Below are positions 4,689-59,454 of a stretch of 64,000 nucleotides of DNA, piece after piece. The stretch is from positions 71,915 to 135,914 of the forward strand of contig JALVPN010000040.1 in the NCBI GenBank assembly GCA_027031765.1, in the 5' to 3' direction. The notes under the pieces are model-generated. The model worked only from the letters and a program-made list of their open reading frames with translations. It was not told the origin of the DNA and did not search any database. Numbering within the stretch: position 1 is the stretch's first letter; every line of letters starts with the position of its first letter. Source of the stretch: Promethearchaeota archaeon (GTDB lineage: Archaea > Asgardarchaeota > Thorarchaeia > Thorarchaeales > Thorarchaeaceae). The position numbers and the translations under genes are program-made.

Positions 4689-5624
4689 GTGCAATGGTCA
4701 GGTAGACTCGCTGTAATCCGGGCAGCAAGAGACCCTTCAGATTATCTACTTGGAAGGGCAGCGTTGCTGAAAGAGGCGGGCACGATTGTCCACCGGGGAT
4801 ACACGGATCAGGACAACGGCCTTGACATTTCAGATGACATACTATGCTCATGGATCCGTAGTGACAGCAAGTTCCACATCCGCACCCTCCATCTGCCGAC
4901 ATCCACATGTCCGTACGAGCCACAGGTGCTCATCAGGCAACTTGGGAGGATGGTGCAACACGTGTCCGGGGCGGAGGTCTCATTTGACTATGAGAGCACA
5001 AGGTTGCTGCTCGTATTCCACGAGTCTCAAGTCTTGCTGTGCCGCTCGAAGCGGTCAGACCTGCGACATGTTCTCATGGTTAAGACACCCAGGCGCAGGA
5101 AGTTCTTTCACCCGTCGATGATGAACTCAGTTCTTGCACGTGTGATGTGCAACCTTGCCCGCATCCGTCCGGGTGTGCGTGTTCTTGACCCGTTCTGTGG
5201 GGCTGGTGGAATACTCTGTGAGGCCGCATCTATTGGAGCAGTGCCCATTGGCATTGACCTCAACTGGAGGCTACTCAGAGGCGCCCAGGCAAACCTTGCA
5301 GACATAGGCAGCACAGGGCTCCTGATAAAAGGGGATGCACAGCATATCCCATTGACTCTGGGCGCCTGTGATGCGGTTGTCACTGACCCCCCATATGGCA
5401 AGGTGAGCTCAACACGGGGGTCTAAATCCAGAAACCTTGTATGGGCAATGCTCAGTCAGACGCAGGACATCCTCTCTGACCACGGCACCATTTGCATCTG
5501 TGGGAACAAGCCGATGGGGCTTCCCACCCTCGTGGAGAGAGCCGGGCTGCACATTTGTCGAGTTGTTGAAGTACCGGTACACAAGCAGCTCACACGCATA
5601 CTTGTTGTTGCAACATGCGCATAG
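4689..5624 (+). CDS. THUMP-domain tRNA/rRNA guanine-N2 methyltransferase (Trm11 / Trm-G10 family). A THUMP-like N-terminus continues in frame upstream to about 4605 with no ATG/GTG/TTG
   Basis: SAM motif VLDPFCGAGGILCEAA and DPPYG; in-frame upstream peptide YFAYVSGEHVDLAKAEIESLLKLW resembles Trm11 N-terminus; GGAGGG RBS at 4583. Confidence 0.65.
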   Translation: MQWSGRLAVIRAARDPSDYLLGRAALLKEAGTIVHRGYTDQDNGLDISDDILCSWIRSDSKFHIRTLHLPTSTCPYEPQVLIRQLGRMVQHVSGAEVSFDYESTRLLLVFHESQVLLCRSKRSDLRHVLMVKTPRRRKFFHPSMMNSVLARVMCNLARIRPGVRVLDPFCGAGGILCEAASIGAVPIGIDLNWRLLRGAQANLADIGSTGLLIKGDAQHIPLTLGACDAVVTDPPYGKVSSTRGSKSRNLVWAMLSQTQDILSDHGTICICGNKPMGLPTLVERAGLHICRVVEVPVHKQLTRILVVATCA

Positions 5625-32919: not shown

Positions 32920-33020
32920 GCCGGGGTATCCAAGTGGCTACGGAGACGGTCTCGAAACGCATCGTCGAGTGAACCGTTGGGGCAATCCCCGCGTGGGTTC
33001 GAATCCCTCCCCCGGCGCCA
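32920..33020 (+). tRNA. tRNA-Ser(CGA), class II, 15-nt intron at 37/38 (32957..32971); CCA encoded
   Basis: Acceptor GCCGGGG/CCCCGGC, 3-bp D-stem, anticodon stem ACGGT/ACCGT, long variable arm TGGGGCAATCCCC hairpin, T-loop TTCGAAT. Confidence 0.7.
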
Positions 33021-33099: not shown

Positions 33100-33222
33100 G
33101 CGAACCAAATGGTGCGGAGGGCGAGATTTGAACTCGCGAACCCCTACGGGAGTACCCCGTTGCCCGATTTTTCACTGGAACAACATCCGGGTCCTAAGCC
33201 CAGCGCCTTTGACCAGGCTTGG
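33100..33222 (-). tRNA. tRNA-Leu(TAG), class II, about 35-nt intron at anticodon-stem/variable-arm junction (about 33142..33176); CCA encoded
   Basis: Acceptor GCGGAGG/CCTCCGC, D-arm GCC AAGCCTGGTCAAA GGC, anticodon stem CTGGG/CCCGG, loop CTTAGGA, variable arm TCCCGTAGGGGTTC, T-arm GCGAG TTCAAAT CTCGC. Confidence 0.55.
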
Positions 33223-33704
33223 CAACCTCCGCTTGTTGGAGAAGAGTTGCAGCCTGGGCTGTTATAATCCTTTGGCTAGTACGATGGAGGGCAGCCAGTG
33301 GGGGGGAGCAATATCGCAAGGTCACACATGTCAAACTTGAGCCACTGGCCTAGAGCTGGTGGGGGCAGGCAAACGGGGCGACATCCCAGCATCTGAACCA
33401 TCACTGATACGACTCAATGGCATTCGTGGGCCACATGCAAATCCCTTGTCAGCCTCGCACTCTAAGGAGCTGCCGTGCCAAGTACAGTGCAATGGCCATC
33501 AAACTGTGGAGTTGACATCACTTACGCACTCATTCAGAATCCGTGCGTGCTTCCTTTTCGGAACTCGTTGCTGAAAGGGAACATACCAAATGAGAGTATA
33601 AATCCTTGAACCATCATAAGACGGGGCATATGCGTCGTGTTTGAATTACTAGATCCAGAAATTGGTGACAGGTTTGCCACGACACATGACCTGGATGATG
33701 CTGG

Positions 33705-37858: not shown

Positions 37859-37964
37859 GCCCCAGTAGCAAAGTGGTCTACTGCACCTGACTTGTAAGGT
37901 TGTAGTGAGACCTGCTCGTCAAGAAATCAGGAGATCGTGGGTTCAAATCCCACCTGGGGCTCCA
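37859..37964 (+). tRNA. tRNA-Thr(TGT) with 29-nt intron at 37/38 (37897..37925); CCA encoded
   Basis: Acceptor GCCCCAG/CTGGGGC, anticodon stem CCTGA/TCAGG, loop CTTGTA-A, T-arm GTGGG TTCAAAT CCCAC. Confidence 0.75.
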
Positions 37965-47421: not shown

Positions 47422-48624
47422 ATGCCGGGATCTGCTGATGCCAGAAAAGAGAGTAGCGTTGGTGAGGCATCATATTCCCAGAGCTACACAAGGCATCTTG
47501 AACGCAGACTCAGAGCACTTGAAACCGAGAAGCAAATCCTTCATGCGGAACGGACACGTCTTGAACGAGAGACGCAGTCTTTGCGTACTGAACTGGAGAA
47601 GCTCAGGCAGGCACCGCTGATTACCGCGACAATAATTGAGATGCTTGATGATGGCCGGGCCATTGTCAAGAGCTCGACGGGCCCAAACTTTGTTGTCCAT
47701 GTTGCCTCATCAATTCCAAGGGACAGACTCCAGCCGGGAATGCGAGTCGCACTCAATCAGAGGTCGTTTGCAGTAACACAGGAGCTCCCACCACCCAAAG
47801 ACCCTATGATTCGGGCGATGGAAATCGAGGACGCGCCTGATGTTTCATACGCGGATATTGGGGGCCTCAAAGAACAACTGCGCGAAATCCGGGAAACGGT
47901 AGAGCTGCCGCTTGTCAGACCGGAACTGTTCGAGGAGGTTGGGATTGAGCCACCGCGGGGCGTTCTGCTGACTGGACCACCAGGTACTGGTAAGACATTG
48001 TGCGCTAGAGCAGTGGCACACGAAACGAACGCGACGTTCATACGGGTGATAGGATCCGAGCTTGTCCAGAAGTTCATTGGAGAGGGGGCAAGACTCGTTA
48101 GAGAGATATTCATGCTTGCGAAGGAGAAGGCCCCCACAATAGTCTTCGTGGACGAACTAGATGCTGTTGGGGCGCATCGACTGGATATAGCTACCTCTGG
48201 AGACCGCGAAGTACAGAGGACATTGATGCAACTCCTTAGCGAACTCGATGGATTTGAGGCCAGGGGACAGGTTGCTGTTATGGGGGCGACGAACCGACCG
48301 GACATACTGGATTCGGCACTGCTCAGGCCTGGTAGGTTTGACCGGATAATCAATTTTCCCCTCCCAGATGAAGTGGAACGCCTTGAAATCTTCAAGATCC
48401 ACACAAGGGGAATGAATATCGACGAGGACATAGACTTTTCAAGACTGGTACAGCTCACATTAGGTAGGACTGGCGCAGATATCAAGGCCATATGCACGGA
48501 GGCTGGAATGGTTGCCATCCGCAGTAATCGTACACGAGTGACGCAGGAGGACTTTCACAGAGCCATTGAGAAGCTACAGGACAGGGGCACTGGGACCTCA
48601 ATCCCGACCGGGCTGTATTGTTAG
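47422..48624 (+). CDS. pan: Proteasome-activating nucleotidase (AAA+ ATPase)
   Basis: N-terminal coiled coil, Walker A GPPGTGKTL, Walker B IVFVDELDA, second region of homology. Confidence 0.9.
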   Translation: MPGSADARKESSVGEASYSQSYTRHLERRLRALETEKQILHAERTRLERETQSLRTELEKLRQAPLITATIIEMLDDGRAIVKSSTGPNFVVHVASSIPRDRLQPGMRVALNQRSFAVTQELPPPKDPMIRAMEIEDAPDVSYADIGGLKEQLREIRETVELPLVRPELFEEVGIEPPRGVLLTGPPGTGKTLCARAVAHETNATFIRVIGSELVQKFIGEGARLVREIFMLAKEKAPTIVFVDELDAVGAHRLDIATSGDREVQRTLMQLLSELDGFEARGQVAVMGATNRPDILDSALLRPGRFDRIINFPLPDEVERLEIFKIHTRGMNIDEDIDFSRLVQLTLGRTGADIKAICTEAGMVAIRSNRTRVTQEDFHRAIEKLQDRGTGTSIPTGLYC

Positions 48625-48668
48625 GTGTTCCATCGGCTGCTCAGTTTCAACGGTTGCTGGGAAACATA

Positions 48669-49493
48669 ATGCGTCTTCGTGAATACCTCCAACGCAAATT
48701 GACCCCGCAGGTGCCACCAGAGGTAAGGTTACCTACAGGGTATCATGTTGTCGGTCACGTTGCGCTACTGAGCCTCCACGACGAAGCAATCGAGTACGCG
48801 ATGCACATCGGAGAAGCCATACTTGGCTTCGACCCTCGAGTGAGAACCGTGGCAATCCGCAGTGGCCCAACTCGGGGAATGTACAGGGAACCATCCTACG
48901 TTGTAGTGGCAGGTACACCGCAATGCGAAACTGTTCACATTGAGAACGGAATCAGATATGCGGTCAATCCACTCAGACTGACATTCTGTGGGGGCAACAA
49001 GCATGAACGGATTAGACTGGCGAAGCAAGTCAGGGGAGCTGAATGCATAGTAGACATGTTTGCTTGTGTGGGGCAGTTCTCGCTGCAGGTAGCAGCGCAC
49101 CCAAGGACAAGGGTTATTGCAATCGAAATCAACCCGGAAGCTTGCCGCTACTTGAGAAGGAACATCCGGCTCAATGGGTTCCACAATGTTTCAGCAGTCA
49201 TGGGCGACTGTCGAAACGCACATCCGATAGACTGGGCGAACCGCATCATAATGGGATATCTGCACGGAACCATCAGGTACCTGCCAGCGGCTCTTGAAAC
49301 TTTGAGGCGTGAGGGAGGTACAGTCCACATGCATTCGACACTCCCACATAGGCACATGGATCAGACGGTGGGTGCAATGACACGGCTGTGCGAAGAGCAT
49401 GGCTATAGGTCGGATATTGAAGTAAGACAGGTCAAGAAGTATGCCCCGGGAGTGGATCACTTTGTCTTTGACATCGTTGCATCTGCTGCGTGA
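48669..49493 (+). CDS. Trm5/TYW2-family (Met-10+ like) tRNA methyltransferase
   Basis: DMFACVGQFSL SAM motif, NIRLNG. Confidence 0.7.
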   Translation: MRLREYLQRKLTPQVPPEVRLPTGYHVVGHVALLSLHDEAIEYAMHIGEAILGFDPRVRTVAIRSGPTRGMYREPSYVVVAGTPQCETVHIENGIRYAVNPLRLTFCGGNKHERIRLAKQVRGAECIVDMFACVGQFSLQVAAHPRTRVIAIEINPEACRYLRRNIRLNGFHNVSAVMGDCRNAHPIDWANRIIMGYLHGTIRYLPAALETLRREGGTVHMHSTLPHRHMDQTVGAMTRLCEEHGYRSDIEVRQVKKYAPGVDHFVFDIVASAA

Positions 49494-49752
49494 CAAGTTT
49501 GCGCTCTTCGTTACGAAACCTTCAGGGAACATCGAGGAGGGTGTATCATATACTCGTGATGTCAGTCCACCTGTGCGGCGAAAGAGGAGCAAGGAGTACG
49601 TGTTTCGGGGAACCGTCTAGTCGGACGCGTTCCGGCTCAGTCACAGTTACTCTGTCAGGACGGTCTGCATGGGCCAAGCACAAGCGTTTTATCGTTCATA
49701 ATACTGATGGAAAACGACAAGGAGCGAGAGATCTGAGATGGGCTTCAGGGGA

Positions 49753-50112
49753 ATGTCACCACGTCAGATTGCCCGGCTAATGAAGAAGATGGGAATCGAG
49801 CAGAAAGAGGTCGAGGGTGTCAAGTCGGTCAGAATCCTGTTTGCAGACAAGGAGTGGGTAATTGAGAGCCCGCAGGTCCTCCTGATAAAGCAGGCAGGTA
49901 GCGAGTCGTTCCAAATCTCGGGCAAGAGGACGGAGAGAGCACCCGACGAACAGAGAGAGGCTGAAGTGGAAAGGCCAAAAGTAGAGATACCGATGGAGGA
50001 CGTCATGCTTGTCGCAAGCCAAGCAGGTGTGGATCCGGAGGCGGCCAGACAGGCCTTGCTTGAAACTGATGGTGACCTAGCAGCAGCAATCCTGAAACTG
50101 AAGCACTCGTGA
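49753..50112 (+). CDS. nac: Nascent polypeptide-associated complex alpha subunit
   Basis: NAC domain plus C-terminal UBA-like DPEAARQALLETDGDLAAAI. Confidence 0.75.
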   Translation: MSPRQIARLMKKMGIEQKEVEGVKSVRILFADKEWVIESPQVLLIKQAGSESFQISGKRTERAPDEQREAEVERPKVEIPMEDVMLVASQAGVDPEAARQALLETDGDLAAAILKLKHS

Positions 50113-50115
50113 AGT

Positions 50116-50745
50116 CTAGTAGCCTTCAAGACGCTCACGAATCATTCTGATTCGAAAGAAGTCCTCCCGCTCCCGCTCTTCAAGTGCTAGTTTCACAAAG
50201 TGAACTGTTGCTTCGAGGCGAGGGAGGACCGTGTTTTCCAGTGCGGAAACACGTCGTTTCGTGCGTTCAATTTCAAGCGCAAGACGTTTGACCGTTGACT
50301 CCACCTCTGCAAGGCGGATGATGGCAGTGAGGGCTTTCTTGAACGTCGCGGCCATTTCGTCGAACTGAGCAGTGGAGTCAATCATCGAGTAGGGGACTTC
50401 AGGAGTATGCTGTTCGAGGGAAATCACAGGTACGCGGACGCCCATCAGTGACCTGGGAGATATCATTAGTTCGGCATCAGTTCCACTTGCCTCTGCAAAC
50501 TCAAACACTCTCGCAGGCCCCATTACCATCTTTGCTTGTGTCAGTGCAGTAAAGGCTTCACTGAGCAGGGACTCGACAGCAGCACGGACACTACGAATCT
50601 CGGCAATGGCATTGAAGAACTCCATCGTAAGCGAGTCGCACTTCTCCTTTAGCAGGTCATGTCCTCTCTCAGCCAGCCGCATTCGACTCTTGAAACGCAG
50701 CAATTCCATCCGTGTTGCCTTTGTCCCCGGGATAATCTTGCTCAT
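50116..50745 (-). CDS. atpD: A/V-type ATP synthase subunit D
   Basis: MSKIIPGTKATRMELLRFKSRMRLAERGHDLLKEK coiled-coil N-terminus typical of subunit D. Confidence 0.85.
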   Translation of the reverse strand: MSKIIPGTKATRMELLRFKSRMRLAERGHDLLKEKCDSLTMEFFNAIAEIRSVRAAVESLLSEAFTALTQAKMVMGPARVFEFAEASGTDAELMISPRSLMGVRVPVISLEQHTPEVPYSMIDSTAQFDEMAATFKKALTAIIRLAEVESTVKRLALEIERTKRRVSALENTVLPRLEATVHFVKLALEEREREDFFRIRMIRERLEGY

Positions 50746-50807
50746 ATGGGGCCACTCCTGAGGTCAGTGGTTCTGCAAGCCAGGTATGAAATCATCTGCC
50801 GCCAAGC

Positions 50808-51086
50808 CTAGGCGAAAATCACGGCCAGTGATGCAACGACAACAACCAGCGTGCACGAGAGGCTCCAGTTGAGGAGGTGATGGGCACCCTGCTGCGGATG
50901 CTCGTCAATCATGCCGGTCGTAAGTAGTGTCATCAAGGAGATGAACAAGAATGCAAATGGCAGTGAGGCAGACTTGCTCGTGAGGGGTGTCTTTGTAGCG
51001 AGGATAATGGCTGCAAGTGCACCAAAGACCAAGAAACTAAGAATCATAACAGATAGAAGGACATGCTGGACTCTCTCTGTATCCAT
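50808..51086 (-). CDS. Small hypothetical membrane protein
   Basis: Three hydrophobic helices; no homology recognised. Confidence 0.35.
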   Translation of the reverse strand: MDTERVQHVLLSVMILSFLVFGALAAIILATKTPLTSKSASLPFAFLFISLMTLLTTGMIDEHPQQGAHHLLNWSLSCTLVVVVASLAVIFA

Positions 51087-51504
51087 TTCAGTATACTCCC
51101 TTGTCGGTCACACGCAGGGTGAGTGGATTCCGACGTTGTCAGTTGAAAAAGGTTTTGACATGTGTTCCAACGGACTGTGCAGAACGGAGCCGGGTAACGA
51201 AGTTGATGATGGAAACGACCCCTACTGGCACTGCGGTACCGTGGTGCTGCCAACTTTGACGGGACACCGAATTCGGAGGGTAGTGTAGTACTGAGCTCAG
51301 TTTCGATACCCTCGACTAGGGGTACGAAGTGGAGTGTACAAAACGCCACAACCAACGAGCTCACTAGTGGCAGCGCAGGCCCTCAGCCAACTAGTCCCAT
51401 GTGCAGGCACTTCATATGATTCAGGGACAACAATACTGAAACCACACCACTTATATCCGGCCCGCTGTATTACACAAACTACTCGTGATACGGCTAGGTA
51501 GGCT

Positions 51505-52488
51505 GTGCAGACAATGACTATTGCAGTCCATGAAAGTGCACTAATACGACACTTCAACACTCGCAGAGAGACCTTACGTGCGTGGGAGGAACGCATTGGT
51601 GCCCGCTTCTCACCGTTTCGTGGGTTCAAGATGCCAGACAGTCGCTTGTACTGTGAACATCCAGATTTTCTGGACAGCATAGTGGACCTGATAATAACCA
51701 ACGAACGGCACATATTCCTCCGGGGACCTGTCGGCTCTGGCAAAAGCACGCTGATGTTGCTGGCGCTGAGAGACTTGCCGACTTTGGCAGACCGCCGTGG
51801 TAACAAGTTCATTACAGGATACGTAGGGATGACAGGGCTCTATGAGAAACAGATGGCGGCCGCAATAGCAGACTCGTTGCGTGTCAAGTACCGCCGGTCA
51901 TGGGAATCGAGTCAAATCATTGAGGCTGTGGCGAGAGAGTGCGTCAGGCGGTACGTTGAGGAGCACTGTCGTACGGCGTTGTTCATAGAGGATGTGGCTG
52001 ACAATCAGGAAGCTGCATTCCACAAGCTCCGTTATCTAGCGGATCTCCCAACAGAGGAGATGAAAGAAGAATATGGGGGGGCCCTAGACGAGCCAGTAGT
52101 GACTTTGATTATGAGTGGCACCATGATGTATTGGAATGCCATGTTGAGCTTCTTGCCGCAGATAGCCGATAGGACAGAACCCCTTGATGTGCCACCATTT
52201 GATGACGCGAAGGCAAAGGAGTTCATAGGACGACGACTGGCATACGCACGCGGTGAGATTGACAGCTTCGACCCTAATGACTTTGACATCTATCCCTTTG
52301 AGGAAGAGGCTATCGAGATAATAAATGCTGCAGCTAGGGGGAACCCGCGGGACATAAGGATGCTCGCAAGAGGTTGCCAACAGGTGGCTGCTGAGCGGCT
52401 CAAGGAAACTGGGGACCCATCAATTACAGTTGAGATAGCAACACTCGTTGTCGATGCATATTCCGCACTTTTGAAGGAGGTGCAGTGA
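51505..52488 (+). CDS. AAA+ ATPase of the archaeal Arch_ATPase (PF01637-like) type
   Basis: Walker A GPVGSGKSTL, Walker B ALFIEDV; about 327 aa. Confidence 0.5.
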   Translation: MQTMTIAVHESALIRHFNTRRETLRAWEERIGARFSPFRGFKMPDSRLYCEHPDFLDSIVDLIITNERHIFLRGPVGSGKSTLMLLALRDLPTLADRRGNKFITGYVGMTGLYEKQMAAAIADSLRVKYRRSWESSQIIEAVARECVRRYVEEHCRTALFIEDVADNQEAAFHKLRYLADLPTEEMKEEYGGALDEPVVTLIMSGTMMYWNAMLSFLPQIADRTEPLDVPPFDDAKAKEFIGRRLAYARGEIDSFDPNDFDIYPFEEEAIEIINAAARGNPRDIRMLARGCQQVAAERLKETGDPSITVEIATLVVDAYSALLKEVQ

Positions 52489-52799
52489 CTGTGAGCCTTC
52501 TGGGAAAGTACAGGCGTGAGGAGAAAGAGAGAGGCGAAGAGGAGCCGAAAAGAACACCTGCTGCCACTAGCAGTACACGCGTGGTAAGACGCCGGTCTAC
52601 GGCCTCTTCAGTTCCCAACAAGGAGCGGAAAAGCCCGATAATGAGCTTCTCTGTGGCCTCTGACCTGCGTGCCTGTCTGCAGGCCGTCAGGATGGAGAAG
52701 GCAATCAATCTGAGCATGTGGGTTGAACGCACACTTAGGGAGGCTGTAATCAGAGAGTTCCCAGAGATTGCACAGGCTCATCTCCGTAGTGATGCATAG
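52485..52799 (+). CDS. Ribbon-helix-helix (CopG/Arc-like) DNA-binding protein with basic N-terminal tail; GTGA overlap with the ATPase gene, GGAGG RBS 4 nt upstream
   Basis: C-terminal MSFSVASDLRACLQAVRMEKAINLSMWVERTLREAV fits beta-alpha-alpha RHH. Confidence 0.5.
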   Translation: MTVSLLGKYRREEKERGEEEPKRTPAATSSTRVVRRRSTASSVPNKERKSPIMSFSVASDLRACLQAVRMEKAINLSMWVERTLREAVIREFPEIAQAHLRSDA

Positions 52800-53015
52800 T
52801 GCGACCCGCATATGTCAAGTCCACTTGTCCCCACCGGCCACTCAATACCCAAAGAAATCACGTCCTACGCCTAACGCTGGAAAACCCAGTCCTACTGGTA
52901 TTAGGAGTAATACAGCCAGACAGCCCTGGATTCCTCTCCATGGTAGCAATCTGGGTGGGTTCCCGGGATTGAAACAGTAGTCGAGGCAGACAAGGTAGTA
53001 GGTGACCGCAGAAAG

Positions 53016-54413
53016 TCACATGGTGCGTCGTCCTTTCAGCTCCGAGTACTCAACAACCTTCGCGATGGCAAGGCACGCCGTATGAGGGTCATCATAGCAG
53101 GGGATACGGTTCATCTCAAGGAGATCCTTGCCTGGCTTTCCTACATCACCAGCAAGCCAAACACCCACCACGGGCTTGTCTGCACCCGCAAGCCGTGCCC
53201 CCTCCAGAGTACCGGCCGCATGTTCTGTCTGTGTCATTCCTGCGAAGGTCGGCACGCCACATATTACCAATAGAGTATCGATATTTTCATCACTGAGTAG
53301 TAGCTCAGTAGCAACACGGTACTCACGGCGTCCGCCGCTTGCCACCACGTCTACGGGGTTGCGAGTGGCGGCCATCGGGGAAAGAATCTGGCGGAGCTCA
53401 CGGCGCGTTTCCTTGGACAGCTCAGGTACGTTCAATCCAAAGTACGATGCGGCGTCGGCCGCAAGAACACCTGCACCGCCGGTATTACTGATGATACCAA
53501 TATTACGGCCACACGGCGAAGGTTGGTAGTCAAAGAGTTTGCACACCTCAAGCAGTGAGTCGAGGGTAGGAATCATGACGGCCCCGGCTTGGCGAACCAT
53601 ACCTTCGAATATTTTTGCTGAGCCGGCCAGTGAGCCTGTGTGTGACTGTGTGGCACGACCGCCGGCCTTACTGAGCCCGCCCTTTAGCACTACCACGGGC
53701 TTTGCCATTGCGGCCTGTCTGAGAGACTCGAAGAAAGGACGGCCTTTGTCTACGCCTTCCACATAGATTGCTATGACGTGGGTCCTATCATCTTCTGTGA
53801 AATACCTAAGCACCTCTGAGAAACTGACATCAGCCGCGTTCCCCAAACTCGCAAACTTGCTGACCCCAATCCTCTTCGCACGTGTATTGTATATGGTCAT
53901 TCCACCAAGAGCACCACTCTGTGAGAGAAGGGCTATGTTCCCACGTTCTGGCATCATAGTGAAAGTCCCGTTGAAGAGACGGCTGTTCGAAACTCCGACA
54001 CAGTTGGGGCCTATGATGCGCACACCTGCTTCCCGAGCTGCATGCACGAGCTGGTTTTCCAGCTGCTTCCCTTCGGGGCCGGTTTCGCTGAAGCCACCAG
54101 AAATTACAACAGCATGGCGTGCTCCGGCGGCCCGAACCTCGTACATGAGTGCAGGACAGTACTTCGCCGCTACTGCAATGATTACTAGGTCGACTGGCAC
54201 CGGTAGTTGGCGGAGGCTGGGGTATGCACGTACGCCCAACACACGCTCGCGACTCCGCGTTACAGGGAACACCTCAACCTCGGACGCAAGGAGATTCATG
54301 AGAATCGAGTTGCCTAGCTTCCGATAGTCGGCTGACGCCCCAACTAGAGCGACTCTGCGTGGATTGAAGAAAGGATCCAAATCATTGTAGGCGTCATATT
54401 CGCCGTATGACAT
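53016..54413 (-). CDS. ADP-forming acetyl-CoA synthetase alpha subunit (CoA-binding / succinyl-CoA-synthetase-like)
   Basis: RRVALVGAS CoA-binding N-terminus; conserved phospho-histidine region SHTGSLAG. Confidence 0.85.
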   Translation of the reverse strand: MSYGEYDAYNDLDPFFNPRRVALVGASADYRKLGNSILMNLLASEVEVFPVTRSRERVLGVRAYPSLRQLPVPVDLVIIAVAAKYCPALMYEVRAAGARHAVVISGGFSETGPEGKQLENQLVHAAREAGVRIIGPNCVGVSNSRLFNGTFTMMPERGNIALLSQSGALGGMTIYNTRAKRIGVSKFASLGNAADVSFSEVLRYFTEDDRTHVIAIYVEGVDKGRPFFESLRQAAMAKPVVVLKGGLSKAGGRATQSHTGSLAGSAKIFEGMVRQAGAVMIPTLDSLLEVCKLFDYQPSPCGRNIGIISNTGGAGVLAADAASYFGLNVPELSKETRRELRQILSPMAATRNPVDVVASGGRREYRVATELLLSDENIDTLLVICGVPTFAGMTQTEHAAGTLEGARLAGADKPVVGVWLAGDVGKPGKDLLEMNRIPCYDDPHTACLAIAKVVEYSELKGRRTM

Positions 54414-55684
54414 AGGCAAGGGCGACAACACACCTGATTTATGTGTAACTAGTGAAATTCAGTACGGAAGTACTTGTAGACCATTTCGGGGGTTGGGTAC
54501 AAAAGTGTCATGGGATGTCTGCAACGTACGCACGGTGTCCGGCCTAAGAGGGGAGGGCAGCGCCGCTCTGTAATAGTGCTGTATAGTGTATGGGTCGTAT
54601 TGCGTGTATTACGACCATGGATGAGCTTTGGACGCGAGCGAGAAACAACTGACATTCAACATTAGAGCAAAGTAGAACGCCAATGTAACTCCACATCTGC
54701 TAGAAGCGGTGCAGATTGAGCCAGACAGATGGCCTATTCGATACCCCGCAGACTTGTCATGAGGACAATCATGTGTGTTGCAGCTTCAAGGGCTAGTGGA
54801 CTCAGGCGGCAGTTTGCGGCACAGAAGCTGCAGAGATATTTCAATGCAAATCGTGCAGCAAGGGGGCAAGAGTACCCACTACGTGTTATCTCAACGGATC
54901 TGCGTACGTCAAGTATTCCAAGCCACCCAGCAACAACAAGGCAGTCAGTGCCGAGTCACGCAGCACACTCATGTGTAGCGGAACTGTAGAATACACTCTG
55001 CACCCAAGCGGTATTGTTCATATAACAGGTAATACGCGTGATACGTCACGTAGATGCTCCTCTTTGGCGAAACGTCCACGCTCGCCAATTGAAATGGAGC
55101 AGGAAGTGGTAGCTGGCAGCAGACAGAACACCAAACTCTGTAGCAAGAAACCCGGGCCACCGGGGTTCTACGAGGCACTGGAACCGTATAACACTACAAC
55201 CGAGGCCGTACGTCAATCCGACATCACAACGTGGATCACTATCACTACAAGGAACCACAAGTAGCCGACATGCCGGTCACCTTTGGACACACGACATAGG
55301 GCGGTAACTACGCAGTACGTGGGGCTCCATCCATAGGCGAAACCCGCGTGCAAGCCGCCTGCATTCGTTAATACTCGTAATACTAGTGATACAGCAATAC
55401 GGCCAATCCACATCTACAGCATGGTGAACCAGGAAGATTCAGCACCCGCTGCTGTTCTAAGATTAGAACTATGTATTCCTGTTGTCAAGAATATAGTGAG
55501 TGTGTCGTACCAGACAGAAGCATATAGACCACGAGCAATCCAGTCCAACTGCACCGTCCAGCATCTCTATCTCCTCGGAACAGACCTCCAGATTTGGGTA
55601 CGGTGTCAGAAGGACACTCAGGTCTGCAAGAGGTACGACACACTCGAGCCCGGTCTACACTCACTACAGGCCAGGCAGTTCTAG

Positions 55685-56239
55685 CTAGTCCAGACGTAGC
55701 GCAAGCGGAGACTGCAACAAGTCCAGTGCGTCAAGAACCACGCGTTCAGCAGCCCTGTACGCTTCAACGTCCTCTGGGGAGAGAGAGTGCCTTGCTGCGA
55801 GTGCTTCGCGGATGCTGCGGTATGCACCAACCCTAGTCGCTACCTCCTCGAAGGGCCTGAAAATACTGAGCTCAAAGAGGCCCAGATACGCCAGGACGAG
55901 CAGGGTATAGATGGAACGCATGACATTTCGCCGCGCTTGCTTCAGAGTTCTGTTGAAGGCGCCGCGCGAAACCCCCTTTCCACCGCGCGGCCCTCTACCC
56001 CTAAGTGACGCCTTCTGTTCGTATGAAACGCGGCCCTCTGATGCATCATCTGTGAGGAGATCAATCAACAGTGTTTCGAGCTGCGTGCTGGTCAGACTGG
56101 AGCGTTCAAGAAGAATGCGCAAGATTGGCTCCCGTAGCACAAGGCGCACTTGTGATACCATCTCCGTCAACGACCCGTCATCTTTTCTTTCTTCGTTCAA
56201 CAGCTCACGCTCCGCCACTGATGAAACGGCGCTCATATT
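55685..56239 (-). CDS. Hypothetical protein in low-GC island (start uncertain)
   Basis: Helical protein-like composition; no motif. Confidence 0.3.
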   Translation of the reverse strand, partial: NMSAVSSVAERELLNEERKDDGSLTEMVSQVRLVLREPILRILLERSSLTSTQLETLLIDLLTDDASEGRVSYEQKASLRGRGPRGGKGVSRGAFNRTLKQARRNVMRSIYTLLVLAYLGLFELSIFRPFEEVATRVGAYRSIREALAARHSLSPEDVEAYRAAERVVLDALDLLQSPLALRLD

Positions 56240-56382
56240 GGCCAATTCACGCGAATCGTCGCTATAAGGCCGTCTGCAAATCCATGTCCACCGGGGGTCC
56301 GGGTGGATACAATTCTGTATACGGCAGAGCTTAAAGCCATATCTGTGTATGAGGCGTGATAGGCGTATTACACTCGATTCAA

Positions 56383-56886
56383 TTATGGCCGTGTTGGCAC
56401 CCACCAAGACTCCTCAGGAGGAACAAATGTAAATGCAAGGACGAGATTGCCACGAACCTGGTCAAACTCATAGACTGCAAACGTTATTGACTCATCATCC
56501 CGATGCCACGAAACATATCTGAGCGCAACTTGACGTCTGAAAAACGCCCGACAATAGCGACGTACCGCGATGAACAGATTGCGATACCGGCGGCGCTGCG
56601 ACGGGCGGATCCCCCAACGTTCGAGGATGAACCGGTTCGCGAGGGAGTTGCTAGATATGAGGATTGGATGCATCACCCTCGTTGACCGACCAGCAACAGC
56701 AGACTCAAGCATGCGTCTAAGGCAAGCAGGAATCCCGGCAAGCACAGATGGGGTCGCGGCTAGGTCTACTGCACCAGTCCCTCCAGAATTGACGGATGTC
56801 ATCACCATCAGAAGGATAGTTTGGTCATCCGCAATAAAAACACCCCAAAATTCGCCGCCGCCACAACTCTCTGCATGACAATGCAC
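56383..56886 (-). CDS. Hypothetical protein in low-GC island, 25-nt overlap with downstream ORF
   Basis: ORF only. Confidence 0.3.
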   Translation of the reverse strand: MHCHAESCGGGEFWGVFIADDQTILLMVMTSVNSGGTGAVDLAATPSVLAGIPACLRRMLESAVAGRSTRVMHPILISSNSLANRFILERWGIRPSQRRRYRNLFIAVRRYCRAFFRRQVALRYVSWHRDDESITFAVYEFDQVRGNLVLAFTFVPPEESWWVPTRP

Positions 56887-57105
56887 GACTTATCCAACGC
56901 ATCAATGATGTCATGAATCGTCATGCAATCAGAGAGGAACCGACAGAGCACCACTGGTACATGCGACACGGGAATGTGACAAGTTGTATTGGTACTCATG
57001 TGAGTAATACGACCAATACGAATATTATCAGTGGAATATAGTGCACGATTTGCCACTTCATCGTATTAATATCGGCACAAGAAATAGAGCGGCTAGGGAC
57101 TCCCT

Positions 57106-59454
57106 GTGAAACAACAGGCGACAATTCACATCAGAGGAATCGTCCAGGGTGTGGGGTTCAGGCCCTTCGTGTATCGTGTAGCCACGCAAAACAGACTCAA
57201 GGGTTACGTGCTGAACCTCGGCGATGCAGGTGTTAGAGTTGTCCTTGAAGGCGAGCGGAACAACATAGAGGCCACAATCAGACAGATCAAGAATCACCCA
57301 CCGTCAATCGCAAGAATCGACGACATGGAAATTCGCTGGTCTTACGCCACAGGACAGTTTCCCGATTTCAGAATTGCCAAGTCCAGCAGCACAGCTACTG
57401 CAGATGTGACCCGGATTCCGCCTGACATCGCAACATGTGAGGACTGCGTCCGCGACATCTTCGACCCAAACTCTCGGTGGTATCAGTATCCATTTACGTC
57501 CTGCGCTGCTTGCGGGCCAAGATACTCCACCATTACGGATTTGCCATACGACAGACCAAACACCACCATGGCTGACTTCCCATTGTGTAATACATGTCAT
57601 AGCAGTTATACAGACCCTGGGAATAGACGGTACCATGCTCAGACAACGGCATGCCCCATATGTGGCCCGCGCTACGTACTGCTGGACAAGGAAGGTAACA
57701 CAGTTGCCACCGAGAGGCCACTCCTTGCCGCGGCCCACCTGCTTGCAGATGATAGAGTGCTCGCTTTACATGGAACCTCCGGAACCCACCTTGTCACTAT
57801 AACTAGCACTCCAGAACCGATTTACCACTTGCGTGAACGAAAGAGGCGGCCCCAGAGACCCTTGGCCGTCATGGCCCGTGGCATGAGCGCAGTCGCTGCC
57901 TTCGCCACTCCTACAACGAGAGAAGCAGAGGAGATGCAGTCATGGCGTAGGCCAATCGTCCTAGTCAGCCGCCGGAGTGTGCCAATGTCCGGGTCTACGG
58001 TCACAGCTGAGTCGCTTGACGCCATAGCGCCCGGCCTCGATACAATTGGCGTGATGCTGCCCTACTCTCCAGCGCACCATATCCTCTTCAACACCCTAAA
58101 TGAGGACGCCCTAGTGATGACAAGCGCAAACCCCACGGGCCTGCCAATGTATATCGATTCCTCTGACATCGTGAAACACCTGCATGAGATAGCAGACTAC
58201 TTTCTTGTCCACAACCGCAGAATACATCAGCGGTGTGACGACTCAGTACTCAAATACATCGCCGGCAGACGCGTCTTCATCCGTCGCTCGAGGGGATACG
58301 TGCCCGAGCCGATCCATACAGACTGGCGACCCAAAGGTACCACAGTCGCAGCCCTCGGCCCTGAAGAAAAGGTCACAGGGACAATCGCCAAGGCTGGTGT
58401 GTTTTACCCAACACAACACATAGGTGATACAGACAGCATCGAAAGCATCGAGTTCCTCACTCACGCAATGAACCACCTGAAGCATCTGTTGAGAATTGAA
58501 CGGTTCGATGCCATTGCGTGTGACCTGCACCCACAGTTCCTCACTACCGAGACCGCCGAAATCATTGCTCAGGAAACGAACACCTCCCTCACACGAGTGC
58601 AACACCACCATGCGCACCTCGCGAGCCTCATAGTAGATAGCAACCTTTCTAGTAATACCCGTATCGTGTGTATTACCGCTGATGGATATGGCTATGGCCC
58701 CAACGGGGAAGCTTGGGGCGGTGAGGTACTCGTGGGCGGTCTCAAAGATGTCACTTGGTACGGAGGTCTCATGCCCAGCAGGTTGTCAGGAGGCGACCTC
58801 GCCGCAAGATATGCCACTAGGAGCCTCATCGGGATTGCCACACCCATTTCCAGTGAAGAGCAGCTCCTGACAATTGCAGGAGGAAACAAGATCTCAGAAC
58901 GAAAACGCCTGACTGAATCAACTCTTCAACTACTAGTACATTCAGCTGAAAGAGGTGTGAACGCAGTTACCACCTCGAGTGCAGGGCGATTTCTCGATGC
59001 CGTGTCTGTAGCTCTGGGCATATGCTCAGAAAACACATACGACGGCGAATGTCCAATGAAACTCGAATCAGTGGCCAGAGACAACGGGACAAGGATCAGA
59101 CCGCACTACATTGACCGACGAGGTAGCCCCCTCATAGACACTGGTGCCGCACTTCAGCAAGTCCTGGAACTGATACAACAGCGGGTGCCACGGGCAGGAA
59201 TAGCTTTCGCTGCACAGTGGTTCCTTGGTGAGGCACTTGCCCAGATTGCGTGTATGGCCTCCCAGGAGCAGTCAATACCTCAGGTTGGGTTTTCCGGAGG
59301 AGTGGCACTCAACAGGAATATCACACGAGCCGTGGAGAGAGTCGTTAGCGACCATGGAGTGCAACTCCTGCGCCACTGGCGAGTCCCACCTGGAGATGGC
59401 GGAGTTTCCGTTGGGCAGAGTGCAGTCACCATGGCCCAGCTAGCACTTGAGTGA
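57106..59454 (+). CDS. hypF: Hydrogenase maturation carbamoyltransferase HypF
   Basis: Acylphosphatase N-terminus VQGVGFRPFV, two CxxC Zn-finger pairs, YrdC and Kae1-like domains. Confidence 0.9.
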   Translation: MKQQATIHIRGIVQGVGFRPFVYRVATQNRLKGYVLNLGDAGVRVVLEGERNNIEATIRQIKNHPPSIARIDDMEIRWSYATGQFPDFRIAKSSSTATADVTRIPPDIATCEDCVRDIFDPNSRWYQYPFTSCAACGPRYSTITDLPYDRPNTTMADFPLCNTCHSSYTDPGNRRYHAQTTACPICGPRYVLLDKEGNTVATERPLLAAAHLLADDRVLALHGTSGTHLVTITSTPEPIYHLRERKRRPQRPLAVMARGMSAVAAFATPTTREAEEMQSWRRPIVLVSRRSVPMSGSTVTAESLDAIAPGLDTIGVMLPYSPAHHILFNTLNEDALVMTSANPTGLPMYIDSSDIVKHLHEIADYFLVHNRRIHQRCDDSVLKYIAGRRVFIRRSRGYVPEPIHTDWRPKGTTVAALGPEEKVTGTIAKAGVFYPTQHIGDTDSIESIEFLTHAMNHLKHLLRIERFDAIACDLHPQFLTTETAEIIAQETNTSLTRVQHHHAHLASLIVDSNLSSNTRIVCITADGYGYGPNGEAWGGEVLVGGLKDVTWYGGLMPSRLSGGDLAARYATRSLIGIATPISSEEQLLTIAGGNKISERKRLTESTLQLLVHSAERGVNAVTTSSAGRFLDAVSVALGICSENTYDGECPMKLESVARDNGTRIRPHYIDRRGSPLIDTGAALQQVLELIQQRVPRAGIAFAAQWFLGEALAQIACMASQEQSIPQVGFSGGVALNRNITRAVERVVSDHGVQLLRHWRVPPGDGGVSVGQSAVTMAQLALE

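Follow-up and report, generated by a model that had tools for sequence, protein, structure and literature searches.

Asgard archaea are more closely related to eukaryotes than any other known organisms, but hardly any experiments have addressed their chromosome biology. In the window (the whole 64,000-nt stretch of DNA analysed here), a gene for an AAA+ ATPase is followed directly by a small gene whose product is probably an RHH protein. Across a whole Asgard class the two genes are conserved to the level of the proteasome ATPase, and no function has been described for them. What does it do, and does it belong to the chromosomal core or, as the first-pass annotation of this DNA thought likely, to an accessory module of the kind found in partition, defence and mobile elements?

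A core operon of Thorarchaeota

The genes and the junction element considered here are:

51514 to 52488, forward strand: AAA+ ATPase gene, 324 aa, AAA_22/ExeA-like by sequence and Orc1/Cdc6-like by predicted fold
52476 to 52480, forward strand: Shine-Dalgarno-like GGAGG within the final ATPase codons, 10 nt 5' of GTG 52491
52491 to 52799, forward strand: small partner gene, 102-aa product
50808 to 51086, reverse strand: TM92, a 92-aa small membrane ORF, divergent, between atpD and the ATPase gene; only a possible member of the system
55685 to 56236, reverse strand: orf18x, about 183 aa from an internal ATG (the mechanical ORF extends to 56407), with a weakly DUF134-like HTH

ORF calling gives a longest ATPase frame of 327 codons (GTG 51505 to TGA 52486-52488) and a longest small frame of 104 codons (GTG 52485 to 52799). 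ATPase homologues are 324 aa long and begin MTIA(V/I), so we place the ATPase start at ATG 51514 rather than 51505. Similarly, homologues of the small protein begin MSLLGKYR and the deposited protein P0121, identical to the window's small product, has 102 aa; the small gene therefore starts at GTG 52491 rather than 52485, 2 nt past the ATPase stop. The GTGA stop/start overlap described previously is physically present at 52485, but the homologue starts indicate that it is probably not the true junction, and we dropped it in favor of GTG 52491. The GGAGG ribosome-binding site described with it was found, and its position is conserved: across Thorarchaeota junctions, GGAGGT or GAGAGGT, encoded by the terminal ATPase codons (K/R-E-V), lies about 9-12 nt upstream of the small-gene start. 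Among the Thorarchaeota loci with a callable junction (two scans that overlap in part gave 45 and 41), all have a stop-to-start spacing from -4 to +2 nt. Spacing and conserved element together support tight translational coupling, at the 52491 junction rather than at GTGA.

The surrounding gene order is fixed in Thorarchaeota (PAN-TYW2-NAC-atpD-TM92-ATPase-small-acd). A scan of GTDB species genomes, seeded with a narrow alignment of the ATPase family, identified 85 ATPase loci (80 retrieved), about 75 of them from Thorarchaeota. The same nine-gene order occurs in nearly all loci, and the position is fixed in about 70 Thorarchaeota species. Mean identity is 81.7% for the ATPase, 79.9% for PAN, 73.1% for acd, and 70.2% for atpD. 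The ATPase family is narrow, with 26 matches among 1.84 billion representatives. The small ORF is conserved wherever the ATPase is, and its 331 clusters, conserved at 55-72% identity over the full length, rule out a spurious call. Orthologous pairs also occur in Gerd/Heimdall-type and Freyarchaeota-type loci. The housekeeping flanks reported earlier, atpD and acd, agree with the Pfam families of the orthologues (atpD and ADP-forming acyl-CoA synthetase). Of the two findings that the first-pass annotation had held would count against an accessory module, a core ATPase gene with fixed synteny is what we observe, whereas the small ORF is a real gene. The pair is a chromosomal, vertically inherited core operon of Thorarchaeota.

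Two other genes recur nearby. TM92 adjoins the pair in nearly all Thorarchaeota loci; in one divergent lineage (L002) an unannotated 88-aa ORF, equated with TM92 by position alone, fills the equivalent slot just after the small gene on the same strand. Homologues of orf18x are found near the pair in Thorarchaeota. In Gerd/Heimdall-type loci they follow the small gene at a distance of about 1.1-1.5 kb, and in Frey-type loci they come closely 3' of the RHH gene. At one locus (L090) the orf18x homologue starts at 5478, on the same strand as the RHH gene, whose end is at 5475. This neighborhood makes orf18x a candidate third component.

An initiator-like ATPase and a peptide-bearing partner

By sequence, the nearest named families of the ATPase are ExeA-like (TIGR03015 and AAA_22), and its JGI name is ExeA. 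A P-loop is present and Pfam AAA_22 is a weak near miss (26.4 bits versus a cut-off of 27, E 9.7e-6). Other models score further below their cut-offs: TIGR03015 at 24.2 bits versus 324.5 (E 1.9e-5, residues 65-288), TIGR02928 at 12.3 versus 181.3, and the Pfam ORC-CDC6-like family PF24389 at 19 versus 27. Distant relatives pass the AAA_22 cut-off at 34-60 bits, which supports kinship with AAA_22 at the superfamily level. An N-terminal G-x4-P-F motif ahead of the P-loop is conserved in the superfamily alignment.

The AF2 model (pLDDT 87.8) predicts a soluble protein of 324 aa with two domains, the AAA+ base and the lid; strands 2 and 3 are separated by two helices at the site of the initiator-specific motif. 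The protein stops after the lid helices, at residue 324. The model has no winged-helix domain, and no winged-helix or HTH Pfam match was found; Pfam and the model likewise gave no transmembrane or peptidoglycan-binding domain. All of the structural neighbors are DNA-acting AAA+ proteins, namely Cdc6/Orc1, TnsC, and MuB. We assigned the following motifs:

G71 to T79: Walker A, GPVGSGKST
E159-D160: acidic pair, reading E-D, not the usual D-E
T203: sensor 1
R220: arginine finger, preceding strand 5
R279: sensor 2, in a G-N-P-R motif

The alignment shows no variation at G71, G74, G76, K77, D160, R220, and R279 and almost none at E159 and T203. Hydrolysis may be slow because the acidic pair is E-D and some distant relatives have N in it. 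As modeled, the ATPase has an Orc1/Cdc6/TnsC/MuB-type fold with the set of nucleotide-binding and hydrolysis motifs intact and no DNA-binding domain of its own.

The small protein has a tripartite architecture:

Residues 1 to 10 (DNA 52491-52520, forward strand): invariant N-peptide, MSLLGKYR(K/R)E
About residues 11 to 40: variable charged linker
About residues 41 to 95 (DNA 52611-52775): C-terminal part, with an invariant VPNKERKSPI and then a probable RHH domain and EFPxIA motif

A synthetic version of the N-peptide reads MSLLGKYRREEKER. The first 47 or so residues form a charged, basic stretch (9 R, 5 K, 7 E), of which residues 10-34 are predicted to be disordered (AF2 pLDDT <50), in line with the basic Glu/Lys/Arg-rich tail of about 50 aa noted previously. 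For the C-terminal part AF2 predicts an extended segment (50-56) and two helices (57-70 and 74-89). Pfam RHH_1 matches 5 of 22 family members (best E 2.2e-4); Pfam gave no match for the window's own protein. NCBIfam YlcI_YnfO_N matches at E 0.006, and the Frey-type partner has an Arc/Mnt-like FNVRMP strand. PDB profile searches with the whole protein and with the C-domain alone returned nothing significant (NikR and Rv0298 align in register at E of about 1, which is not significant), and neither did Foldseek against the PDB. Thus, of the earlier description as an RHH DNA-binding protein, the conserved gene is secure, and the fold is probable rather than proven, resting on the RHH_1 matches and the predicted strand and two helices. 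We found no link to the aCcr1 RHH cell-cycle regulators, which are reported for Sulfolobales and their viruses.

A six-frame translation of the window contains the N-peptide motif just once, and the peptide is portable to a different partner. At a locus labelled Bathyarchaeota (L089), a gene for a KaiC-like ATPase (PF06745, E 2.2e-59) overlaps the AAA+ stop by 4 nt, and the N-terminus of its product carries the peptide three times, as SVLSKYKK twice and GVLSKYKK once. A triplicate peptide on a KaiC-like partner right after the orthologous ATPase is hard to explain otherwise than by a relationship between peptide and ATPase. KaiC-like genes also adjoin the more distant relatives P0257 and P0267, but their products lack the peptide, so we do not count that neighborhood as evidence.

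A candidate operator, a proposed mechanism, and its rivals

A conserved 25-bp element of GTnnTAC heptads that may be an operator precedes the ATPase gene, in the interval from the TATA box to the ATG. Promoter-like and heptad sites in the window are:

51441 to 51457, forward strand: BRE/TATA-like element ACCACACCACTTATATC, read from the sequence as a putative promoter
51467 to 51491, forward strand: candidate operator, three 9-bp-phased heptads, GTATTAC-ac-AAACTAC-tc-GTGATAC
55029 to 55044, forward strand: extra heptad pair GTAATACgcGTGATAC in an ORF-less stretch, tentative
55368 to 55400, forward strand: 9-bp-phased heptad array TTAATACtcGTAATACtaGTGATACagCAATAC, tentative

The promoter-like block, ACCAC-ACnnTTTATAT, occupies the same position in an alignment of 70 Thorarchaeota upstream regions. 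The operator family consensus, GTATTACaaGAAGTACttGTGATAC, is an imperfect palindrome; the consensus is also written GTATTACAAGAAGTACTTGTGATAC. Within 120 nt upstream of the ATPase ATG, the strict motif GTAWTAC-N11-GT[GAT]WTAC is present at 60 of 70 non-redundant Thorarchaeota loci, with near-variants at the other 10; the distance from operator end to ATG is 11-38 nt (median 21). Elsewhere there are only 24 matches to the strict motif in 1.95 Mb, both strands scanned. In Gerd/Heimdall-type loci a related GAAATACttGTATTAC precedes the ATPase gene, and a motif that contains GTAWTAC and is likewise related precedes the small gene.

Judged from sequence, the element at 51467-51491 is a candidate autoregulatory operator of the operon. 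Because one conserved heptad set sits after the TATA box and ahead of the start codon, the small protein may autoregulate its own transcription, presumably by binding the heptads. The conserved element could instead bind a different regulator. Heptad pairs at 9-bp spacing number 2, versus 0 in 200 dinucleotide shuffles, and the extra arrays are confined to one ORF-less stretch of this genome. A search of Rfam for structured RNA in that stretch and in the 427-nt spacer upstream of the ATPase gene returned no match at E ≤ 1 except one far below threshold, and repeats within the spacer are unremarkable.

We propose, with a probability of about 0.5, that the pair is a split DNA-targeted AAA+ switch, in which the RHH adaptor recruits or regulates an ORC/TnsC-like ATPase on DNA. 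The small protein would dimerize via its C-terminal RHH domain and bind the 9-bp-phased GTnnTAC heptads. Its invariant N-peptide, MSLLGKYRKE, held on a flexible charged linker, would dock onto the AAA+ ATPase, and the ATPase, having no DNA-binding domain, would be recruited to, or regulated at, the RHH-marked DNA, where it may assemble or disassemble in an ATP-dependent manner. Both the contact between peptide and ATPase and the action on DNA are conjectural steps of this scheme. The pair may serve to organize or segregate the chromosome, or to control a small regulon in an ATP-dependent way. A bolder version, speculative and on balance rather unlikely, is an unrecognized Asgard DNA-transaction machine in which RHH dimers arrayed on the phased heptads would, through the docking peptide, nucleate an Orc1/Cdc6/TnsC-like AAA+ oligomer on the chromosome or trigger its disassembly, serving segregation or organization like ParABS/SegAB, or replication control, with an AAA+ motor in place of the ParA ATPase. 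If true, near-universal presence and PAN-level conservation would point to an essential housekeeping system of Thorarchaeota. The 10-residue peptide, the 25-bp DNA element, and the small soluble ATPase provide handles for testing; if the model fails, the locus is still core and not accessory.

The two products could also be co-expressed and functionally separate, the RHH protein being an autorepressor only, the ATPase an ExeA-like factor that assembles or remodels some protein or envelope substrate, and the N-peptide put to some other use. The ExeA member that has been characterized functions in the assembly of secretins and does not act on DNA. Besides the best sequence matches (AAA_22 and ExeA-like TIGR03015) and the JGI name, this reading draws on the constant TM92 neighbor in Thorarchaeota, on a T2SSE ATPase 2.6 kb upstream in Gerd-type loci, and on the more distant relative P0267, which adjoins T2SSE, T2SSF, and pilin genes; the position of the operator suits simple autorepression. 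However, the T2SSE neighborhood is absent in Thorarchaeota, the ATPase has no transmembrane or peptidoglycan-binding domain, and its structural neighbors all act on DNA. One distant relative even has a fused C-terminal wHTH (matching MarR_2/HTH_24), and the triplicate peptide on a KaiC-like partner also argues against separate functions. We consider this reading doubtful.

Improbable, in our judgment, is that the pair and orf18x are dedicated to regulating hypF or hydrogenase maturation and metabolism. AAA+, RHH, orf18x, and HypF genes are neighbors in three Asgard lineages (Thor, Gerd/Heimdall-type, and Frey-type): the order is ATPase, small, orf179, HypF in Gerd/Heimdall-type loci and ATPase, RHH, orf169-197, HypF in Frey-type loci, the first three forming a tight co-directional run at L090. 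Every lineage, however, has hypF either on the other strand or separated by several genes, and there is no hypF near the Bathy-type locus. A heptad site does occur at 57004, about 100 nt upstream of hypF in the window, but we could not establish that the hypF promoter has a conserved heptad operator. The matches inside hypF (57587, with equivalents at L009, L011, and L065) encode the codons of the HypF C-N-T-C zinc finger, and we rejected them as operators, as they look coding-derived. An ATPase conservation of 81.7% would also be unusual for a single-target regulator.

The Cdc6/Orc1 fold, with its two helices at the initiator-specific motif, also brings to mind an origin-associated factor, a winged-helix-less Orc1/Cdc6 paralogue guided to origin repeats by the RHH protein. 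Repeated heptads in the nearby 1.25-kb ORF-less stretch and a cumulative GC skew peak near 52-54 kb fit this idea. Yet the skew change coincides with a change of coding strand, the ORF-less stretch is filled by a gene of about 409 aa in other Thorarchaeota genomes, and the spacer upstream of the ATPase gene is usually only about 180-200 nt; neither region is AT-rich. The low TIGR02928 score also speaks against it, as does a 2025 survey finding that core replisome composition holds across archaea, including Asgard (PMC12680538). We rank an origin of replication low, as very unlikely.

Finally, an accessory, horizontally mobile cassette of partition, defence, or toxin-antitoxin-like type between housekeeping genes is scarcely credible: pairs of an ATPase and a small RHH protein are common in partition, defence, and mobile cassettes, and the ATPase has a weak PHROG match to a MuB-like "DNA transposition protein" (E 0.0022), but a core gene with fixed synteny in about 70 species and PAN-like conservation defeats this reading. 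We found no relatives in PLSDB plasmids or INPHARED phages (tblastn) or in IMG/VR viral contigs (motif-seeded scan), no PADLOC defence model match reaching E 0.01 (best E 0.023), no att-type direct repeats of ≥14 nt flanking 50.7-53.1 kb, and no tRNA, integrase, or transposase beside the pair. PADLOC and PHROGs yielded marginal P-loop or MuB-like matches at most. The GC content of the pair (0.50-0.54) is that of the flanks, with no compositional anomaly.

Comparison with known systems

The ATPase resembles Orc1/Cdc6 proteins in its predicted AAA+ base and lid, the helices at the initiator-specific motif, the arginine finger before strand 5, and the G-N-P-R sensor 2. Use of this fold for gene regulation rather than initiation is reported for Orc1-2 (PMC9738581). 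Unlike Orc1/Cdc6, the window ATPase has no C-terminal winged helix, and DNA recognition would come in trans via the RHH protein. Sequence models miss it (TIGR02928, 12 versus 181 bits; ORC-CDC6-like, 19 versus 27), and only a few Asgard and related lineages have the family.

The nearest families by sequence are the ExeA/GspA-like AAA_22 proteins (COG3267; TIGR03015, PEP-CTERM-associated ATPase). ExeA/GspA proteins have a transmembrane segment, a periplasmic peptidoglycan-binding domain, and an ExeB/GspB partner. In contrast, the window ATPase, which falls just under the AAA_22 cut-off and far under that of TIGR03015, lacks both a membrane part and a peptidoglycan-binding part, and it is paired with the probable RHH protein instead of an ExeB-like partner. 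TnsC, MuB, and TniB are small AAA+ proteins that have no sequence-specific DNA-binding domain and are controlled by a short partner peptide (MuA-MuB, TnsB-TnsC). Here, however, there is no transposase, transposon end, or mobility at the pair, which is a fixed chromosomal core gene set; the partner is of RHH type and the peptide N-terminal.

The earlier analogy with systems that combine an ATPase and an RHH partner proved useful. As in SegAB, ParF-ParG, and delta-omega, the ATPase gene precedes the RHH gene at a tight junction, with cis sites by the operon. The architecture of the small protein would fit theirs, with a conserved N-terminal part that may contact the ATPase, a variable middle, and a C-terminal part that probably binds DNA. 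SegB has a conserved N-terminal SegA-binding part and a C-terminal RHH DNA-binding part, with lineage-specific insertions between them, and the site to which it binds adjoins segAB (bioRxiv 10.1101/2025.04.15.649018; PMC8682754). For omega, the DNA targets are arrays of heptad repeats (PDB 2bnw). By sequence, the repeated cis sites looked for in ParA/RHH partition systems appear to lie beside this operon too, as heptads upstream in 60 of 70 loci and variants in the rest. The ATPase, however, belongs to the AAA+ initiator/ExeA group and not to the ParA proteins with a deviant Walker A, and the heptad period at the window locus is 9 bp. If the split-switch model holds, a portable peptide tag would join this ATPase family to RHH or KaiC-like partners, and the pair would be an AAA+-based counterpart to the ParA and RHH logic of SegAB, ParFG, and delta-omega.

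Conservation and junction of the gene pair

We identified the following two genes as a conserved unit.

51514-52488, forward strand, AAA+ ATPase gene
52491-52799, forward strand, gene for a small, probably RHH-type partner protein

The window comes from the chromosome of a member of the Thorarchaeota (Asgard archaea), and all close homologues of both proteins come from Thorarchaeota MAGs. Scanning a single genome for each GTDB species yielded 85 loci. The best 80 of these were retrieved and include about 75 Thorarchaeota loci with 77-86% identity, one divergent Thorarchaeota lineage with 65%, and eight MAGs labelled Heimdallarchaeota with 42-44%. Nine window proteins were mapped onto all loci. 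Gene order is constant in essentially every Thorarchaeota locus: PAN, TYW2, NAC, atpD (-), a 92-aa membrane ORF (-), the ATPase, the small protein, acd (-) and, farther on, orf18x (-), which encodes a putative HTH protein.

Mean identity to the window protein (60-68 Thorarchaeota loci per protein; 12 loci for orf18x)
ATPase, 81.7%
PAN, 79.9%
acd, 73.1%
atpD, 70.2%
NAC, 61.5%
Small protein, 56.9%
92-aa membrane ORF, 49.6%
TYW2, 48.4%
orf18x, 46.7%

The first-pass annotation viewed the pair, flanked by the unrelated genes atpD and acd, as a likely accessory module. This is contradicted by the constant synteny and conservation across Thorarchaeota, in which the ATPase is a core gene with fixed neighbors. 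The mobile-element checks proposed there were also negative: no relatives of the pair occur in IMG/VR viral contigs, PLSDB plasmids, or INPHARED phages, and no direct repeats of at least 14 nt (att-like or otherwise) flank it. No tRNA adjoins the pair, there is no GC anomaly, and the best PADLOC match has an E value of only 0.023. The small ORF is not spurious, because it was found in every retrieved locus that extends past the ATPase gene. The pair is core, not accessory.

The A/V-type ATP synthase subunit D gene (50116-51086 (-) region) has the 92-aa membrane ORF as its sole upstream companion; no other ATP synthase subunit gene adjoins it, an arrangement retained across Thorarchaeota. Cumulative GC skew over ~48000-58000 climbs to a maximum at ~52-54 kb and then drops; this turn coincides with a switch of the predominant coding strand and is not read as a replication landmark.

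Called mechanically, both ORFs start with GTG (51505-52488, 327 codons; 52485-52799, 104 codons), and the GTGA overlap reported initially is literally present. However, homologues shift both starts. ATPase homologues are 324 aa long and begin MTIA(V/I), placing the start at ATG 51514. Small-protein homologues open with M-S-L-L-G-K-Y-R and a deposited protein identical to the window product has 102 aa, placing that start at GTG 52491, 2 nt past the ATPase stop. In all Thorarchaeota loci with a scorable junction, the start codon is placed -4 to +2 nt relative to the stop, and a conserved GGAGGT or GAGAGGT, encoded by the final ATPase codons (K/R-E-V), lies ~9-12 nt upstream. The GGAGG noted in the first-pass annotation is read in the window at:

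52476-52480, GGAGG

Translational coupling is well supported, via a junction other than GTGA. Of the original proposal, the pair and its coupling stand and the accessory status falls.

The ATPase and its small partner

By sequence, the ATPase is a weak AAA_22/ExeA-like P-loop protein (AAA_22, 26.4 bits with a cut-off of 27; TIGR03015, E 1.9e-5; ORC-CDC6-like, E 6e-4). The family is very narrow: HMMER, run exhaustively over 1.84 billion cluster representatives, found 26 proteins at E <= 1e-3. The chain comprises an alpha/beta base and a helical lid in addition to an N-terminal helix, and it terminates after the lid without a winged helix. Helices 111-121 and 132-149, between strands 2 and 3, are joined by a basic, nearly invariant loop (VKYRRSWE); they occupy the position of the Orc1/Cdc6 initiator-specific motif (ISM), of which, from the order of elements, we infer that they are the counterpart. 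All the catalytic motifs are preserved, with little or no variation in the family:

G71-x2-G74-x-G76-K77-S-T, Walker A
E159-D160, acidic pair, reversed relative to the usual D-E
T203, sensor 1
R220, Arg finger
R279, sensor 2, inside G-N-P-R

More distant relatives exceed the AAA_22 cut-off (34-60 bits). One of them, P0261, has a fused C-terminal winged HTH that scores against MarR_2/HTH_24, so members of the wider family can be fused to a DNA-binding domain; the C-terminal extension of another, P0255, looks winged-helix-like by eye, with no detection by Pfam. Distant relatives of 490-504 aa are encoded immediately after a degenerate KaiC-like gene in loci L087 and L088 (5361-12015) and L086 (5382-7473); those in L087 and L088 also adjoin a pilin gene, two T2SSF genes, and one T2SSE gene.

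The small protein is tripartite in both alignments made (35 Thorarchaeota sequences; 22 sequences across three lineages). An invariant N-terminal peptide, MSLLGKYR(K/R)E, is followed by a linker that differs in both length and sequence and has many E, K, R, S, and T residues, and by an invariant C-terminal block, VPNKERKSPI-(M/V)SFS(V/I)xx(D/E)LRxCLQA(V/I)RxxKAINLS(M/L)WVExxLR(E/D)A-xx-EFPxIA. In the AF2 model, the linker is disordered (pLDDT <50 at residues 10-34), residues 50-56 are extended, and residues 57-70, 74-89, and 91-97 are helical. RHH_1 matches 5 of the 22 family members (best E 2.2e-4), RHH_3 and CcdA match one each, NCBIfam YlcI_YnfO_N gives E 0.006, and NikR and the antitoxin Rv0298 align in register at E ~1; Foldseek returned no match. 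A Freyarchaeota-type orthologue carries a textbook Arc/Mnt-like strand, T-N-F-N-V-R-M-P (Arc, E 0.017). These lines of evidence, individually weak, are consistent, and the small protein is probably an RHH protein.

A candidate operator, a portable peptide, and the wider neighborhood

The 220 nt before the ATPase start were aligned for 70 non-redundant Thorarchaeota loci. The consensus has a BRE/TATA-like block, ACCAC-ACnnTTTATAT, then TTGTATTACAAGAAGTACTTGTGATAC, which can be read either as three heptads repeating every 9 bp (GTATTAC, GAAGTAC, GTGATAC) or as an imperfect palindrome whose arms are 11 nt long. The strict motif GTAWTAC-N11-GT[GAT]WTAC lies at most 120 nt from the ATPase ATG in 60 of the 70 loci, ending 11-38 nt (median 21) before it, and the other 10 have near-variants; both strands of 1.95 Mb contain only 24 further matches. 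The window copy is:

51467-51491, GTATTACacAAACTACtcGTGATAC, downstream of CTTATAT at 51450-51456

Gerd/Heimdall-type loci have a related GAAATACttGTATTAC immediately upstream of the ATPase start, and a TATTTATATTT box followed by another GTAWTAC-containing motif in the 59-69 nt that separate the small gene from the ATPase gene. As the motif accompanies both genes across lineages only 42-44% identical, it is most simply a candidate operator of the pair's own operon, to which the RHH protein may bind.

The 92-aa ORF and the ATPase gene are 427 nt apart in the window (51087-51513), versus ~180-200 nt in most Thorarchaeota loci and 350-665 nt in a minority. The additional ~230 nt, which have no Rfam match, fall between the ATPase promoter and a conserved TTcAAAAAGgTTgtGt block (near 51142).

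Relatives at 45%, 40%, and 33% identity come from Heimdall/Gerdarchaeota, a Bathyarchaeota-labelled MAG, and Freyarchaeota, respectively (source names). In the Bathyarchaeota-type locus L089 (2167-4208), a 64-aa RHH-like ORF precedes the ATPase gene, and a KaiC-like ATPase gene (PF06745, E 2.2e-59) overlaps the ATPase stop by 4 nt. The KaiC-like protein begins with three copies of the same motif as the Thorarchaeota small-protein N-terminus (MSVLSKYKK, SSVLSKYKK, GVLSKYKK). The motif occurs once in all six frames of the window and is absent from the KaiC-like proteins of L086, L087, and L088. Since it keeps to the N-terminus of whichever protein is encoded directly after the ATPase, it is best explained as a candidate ATPase-docking element.

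Gerdarchaeota-type order is T2SSE (-), TFB (-), a 193-aa ORF (-), ATPase, small protein (MSLLQKYRK...), orf179, and HypF (-). Freyarchaeota-type order is ATPase, a 143-155-aa RHH protein, an orf18x homologue (3 nt past the RHH stop on the same strand in L090), and HypF. In Thorarchaeota, a few genes separate the pair from the orf18x homologue and HypF. An AAA+/RHH/orf18x/HypF neighborhood is therefore common to three Asgard lineages. The orf18x-type protein is uncharacterised (~170-197 aa; weak DUF134-like HTH, E 0.037).

Window 55685-56236 (-) and 57106-59454 (+), orf18x and HypF
L077 9389-12285, orf18x-type gene and HypF region near the pair
L090 5478-8299, the same
L092 5818-8753, the same

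The 1.25 kb between acd and orf18x (54432-55684) contains no ORF >97 aa. Other Thorarchaeota genomes have a fast-evolving ~409-aa gene in this slot (37-84% identity among loci; weak HEAT_2 match), to which tblastn found no match in the window. Heptads number 37 in the window versus 14.9 in shuffles, and the ORF-less stretch includes operator-like, 9-bp-phased arrays:

54597-54612, reverse strand, heptad array
55029-55044, heptad array
55368-55400, heptad array

A ~60-nt non-coding element, at 55450-55512 (- strand) in the window and in ~60 related loci such as L029 (11195-11251), is invariably found between the stop of orf18x and the 409-aa gene. Its sequence is ACGACACACTCAtact...aTACATAGTTCTAATCtTAGAAC followed by a T-rich tail, and it contains a GTTCTAA/TTAGAAC hairpin. 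Conservation is 76-87% over ~55-67 nt in most related Thorarchaeota loci, with shorter exact cores in the rest. Rfam returned no match to the element; possible identities are a small RNA, a terminator, and a promoter with a 5' leader. Four Rfam tRNA matches of 98-120 nt, uncalled by ARAGORN (1237-1341, 32920-33017, 33113-33232, 37859-37961), are probably intron-containing archaeal tRNA genes.

Proposed mechanism and comparison with known systems

We propose that RHH dimers would occupy the phased heptads of the operon's promoter, resulting in repression or tuning, and that the flexible tail would present the N-terminal peptide to the ATPase. Having no DNA-binding domain of its own, the ATPase would be recruited to, or switched at, RHH-marked DNA, where it would assemble or disassemble with ATP. 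We give this skeleton (RHH on heptads, peptide docking, ATPase at marked DNA) a probability of roughly 50%. The data show the conservation, the coupling, the fold, the intact motifs, the architecture of the partner, the cis element, and the portability of the peptide; both molecular contacts, the action on DNA, and the physiological role are what we infer.

Alternatively, the two proteins could be functionally separate, the ATPase having an ExeA-like, non-DNA role. The TIGR03015 match would fit this unlikely scenario; the ATPase differs in falling narrowly under the AAA_22 cut-off and in lacking the ExeA membrane and peptidoglycan-binding parts. The proximity of orf18x and HypF suggests either a larger conserved neighborhood or a hydrogenase-maturation link; that the pair is a dedicated HypF or hydrogenase-linked regulator is improbable, and several genes can intervene. 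An origin-associated, initiator-like factor would fit the ISM-like helices; it is a very doubtful reading. Unlike Orc1/Cdc6, the ATPase has no winged helix, and it fails Orc1/Cdc6 models. An accessory cassette, despite the unrelated flanking genes, can be dismissed almost entirely given the fixed synteny.

Literature searches found no paper describing this family. A 2025 Asgard replisome survey covers canonical Cdc6-1 and Cdc6-2 (PMC12680538), and the passages retrieved from it do not mention the pair. The uncharacterised pair shows strong conservation within a restricted set of lineages and lends itself to direct testing.

It belongs to none of the Orc1/Cdc6, TnsC, ParG, omega, or SegB families, and the ATPase is not of the ParA type. 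TnsC/MuB-type AAA+ proteins are controlled by a partner-protein peptide, and a similar logic may apply here. SegB is described as having conserved N- and C-terminal parts with lineage-specific insertions between them, and a binding site that adjoins segAB (bioRxiv 10.1101/2025.04.15.649018; PMC8682754). The pair resembles this system in combining an ATPase with an RHH partner, a putative N-terminal ATPase-interacting region, and operon-adjacent cis sites. The proposed mechanism would unite the SegB-type and TnsC/MuB-type logics, and the pair may work most like a hybrid of an Orc1/Cdc6 or TnsC-type AAA+ switch and a ParG, omega, or SegB-type RHH adaptor.
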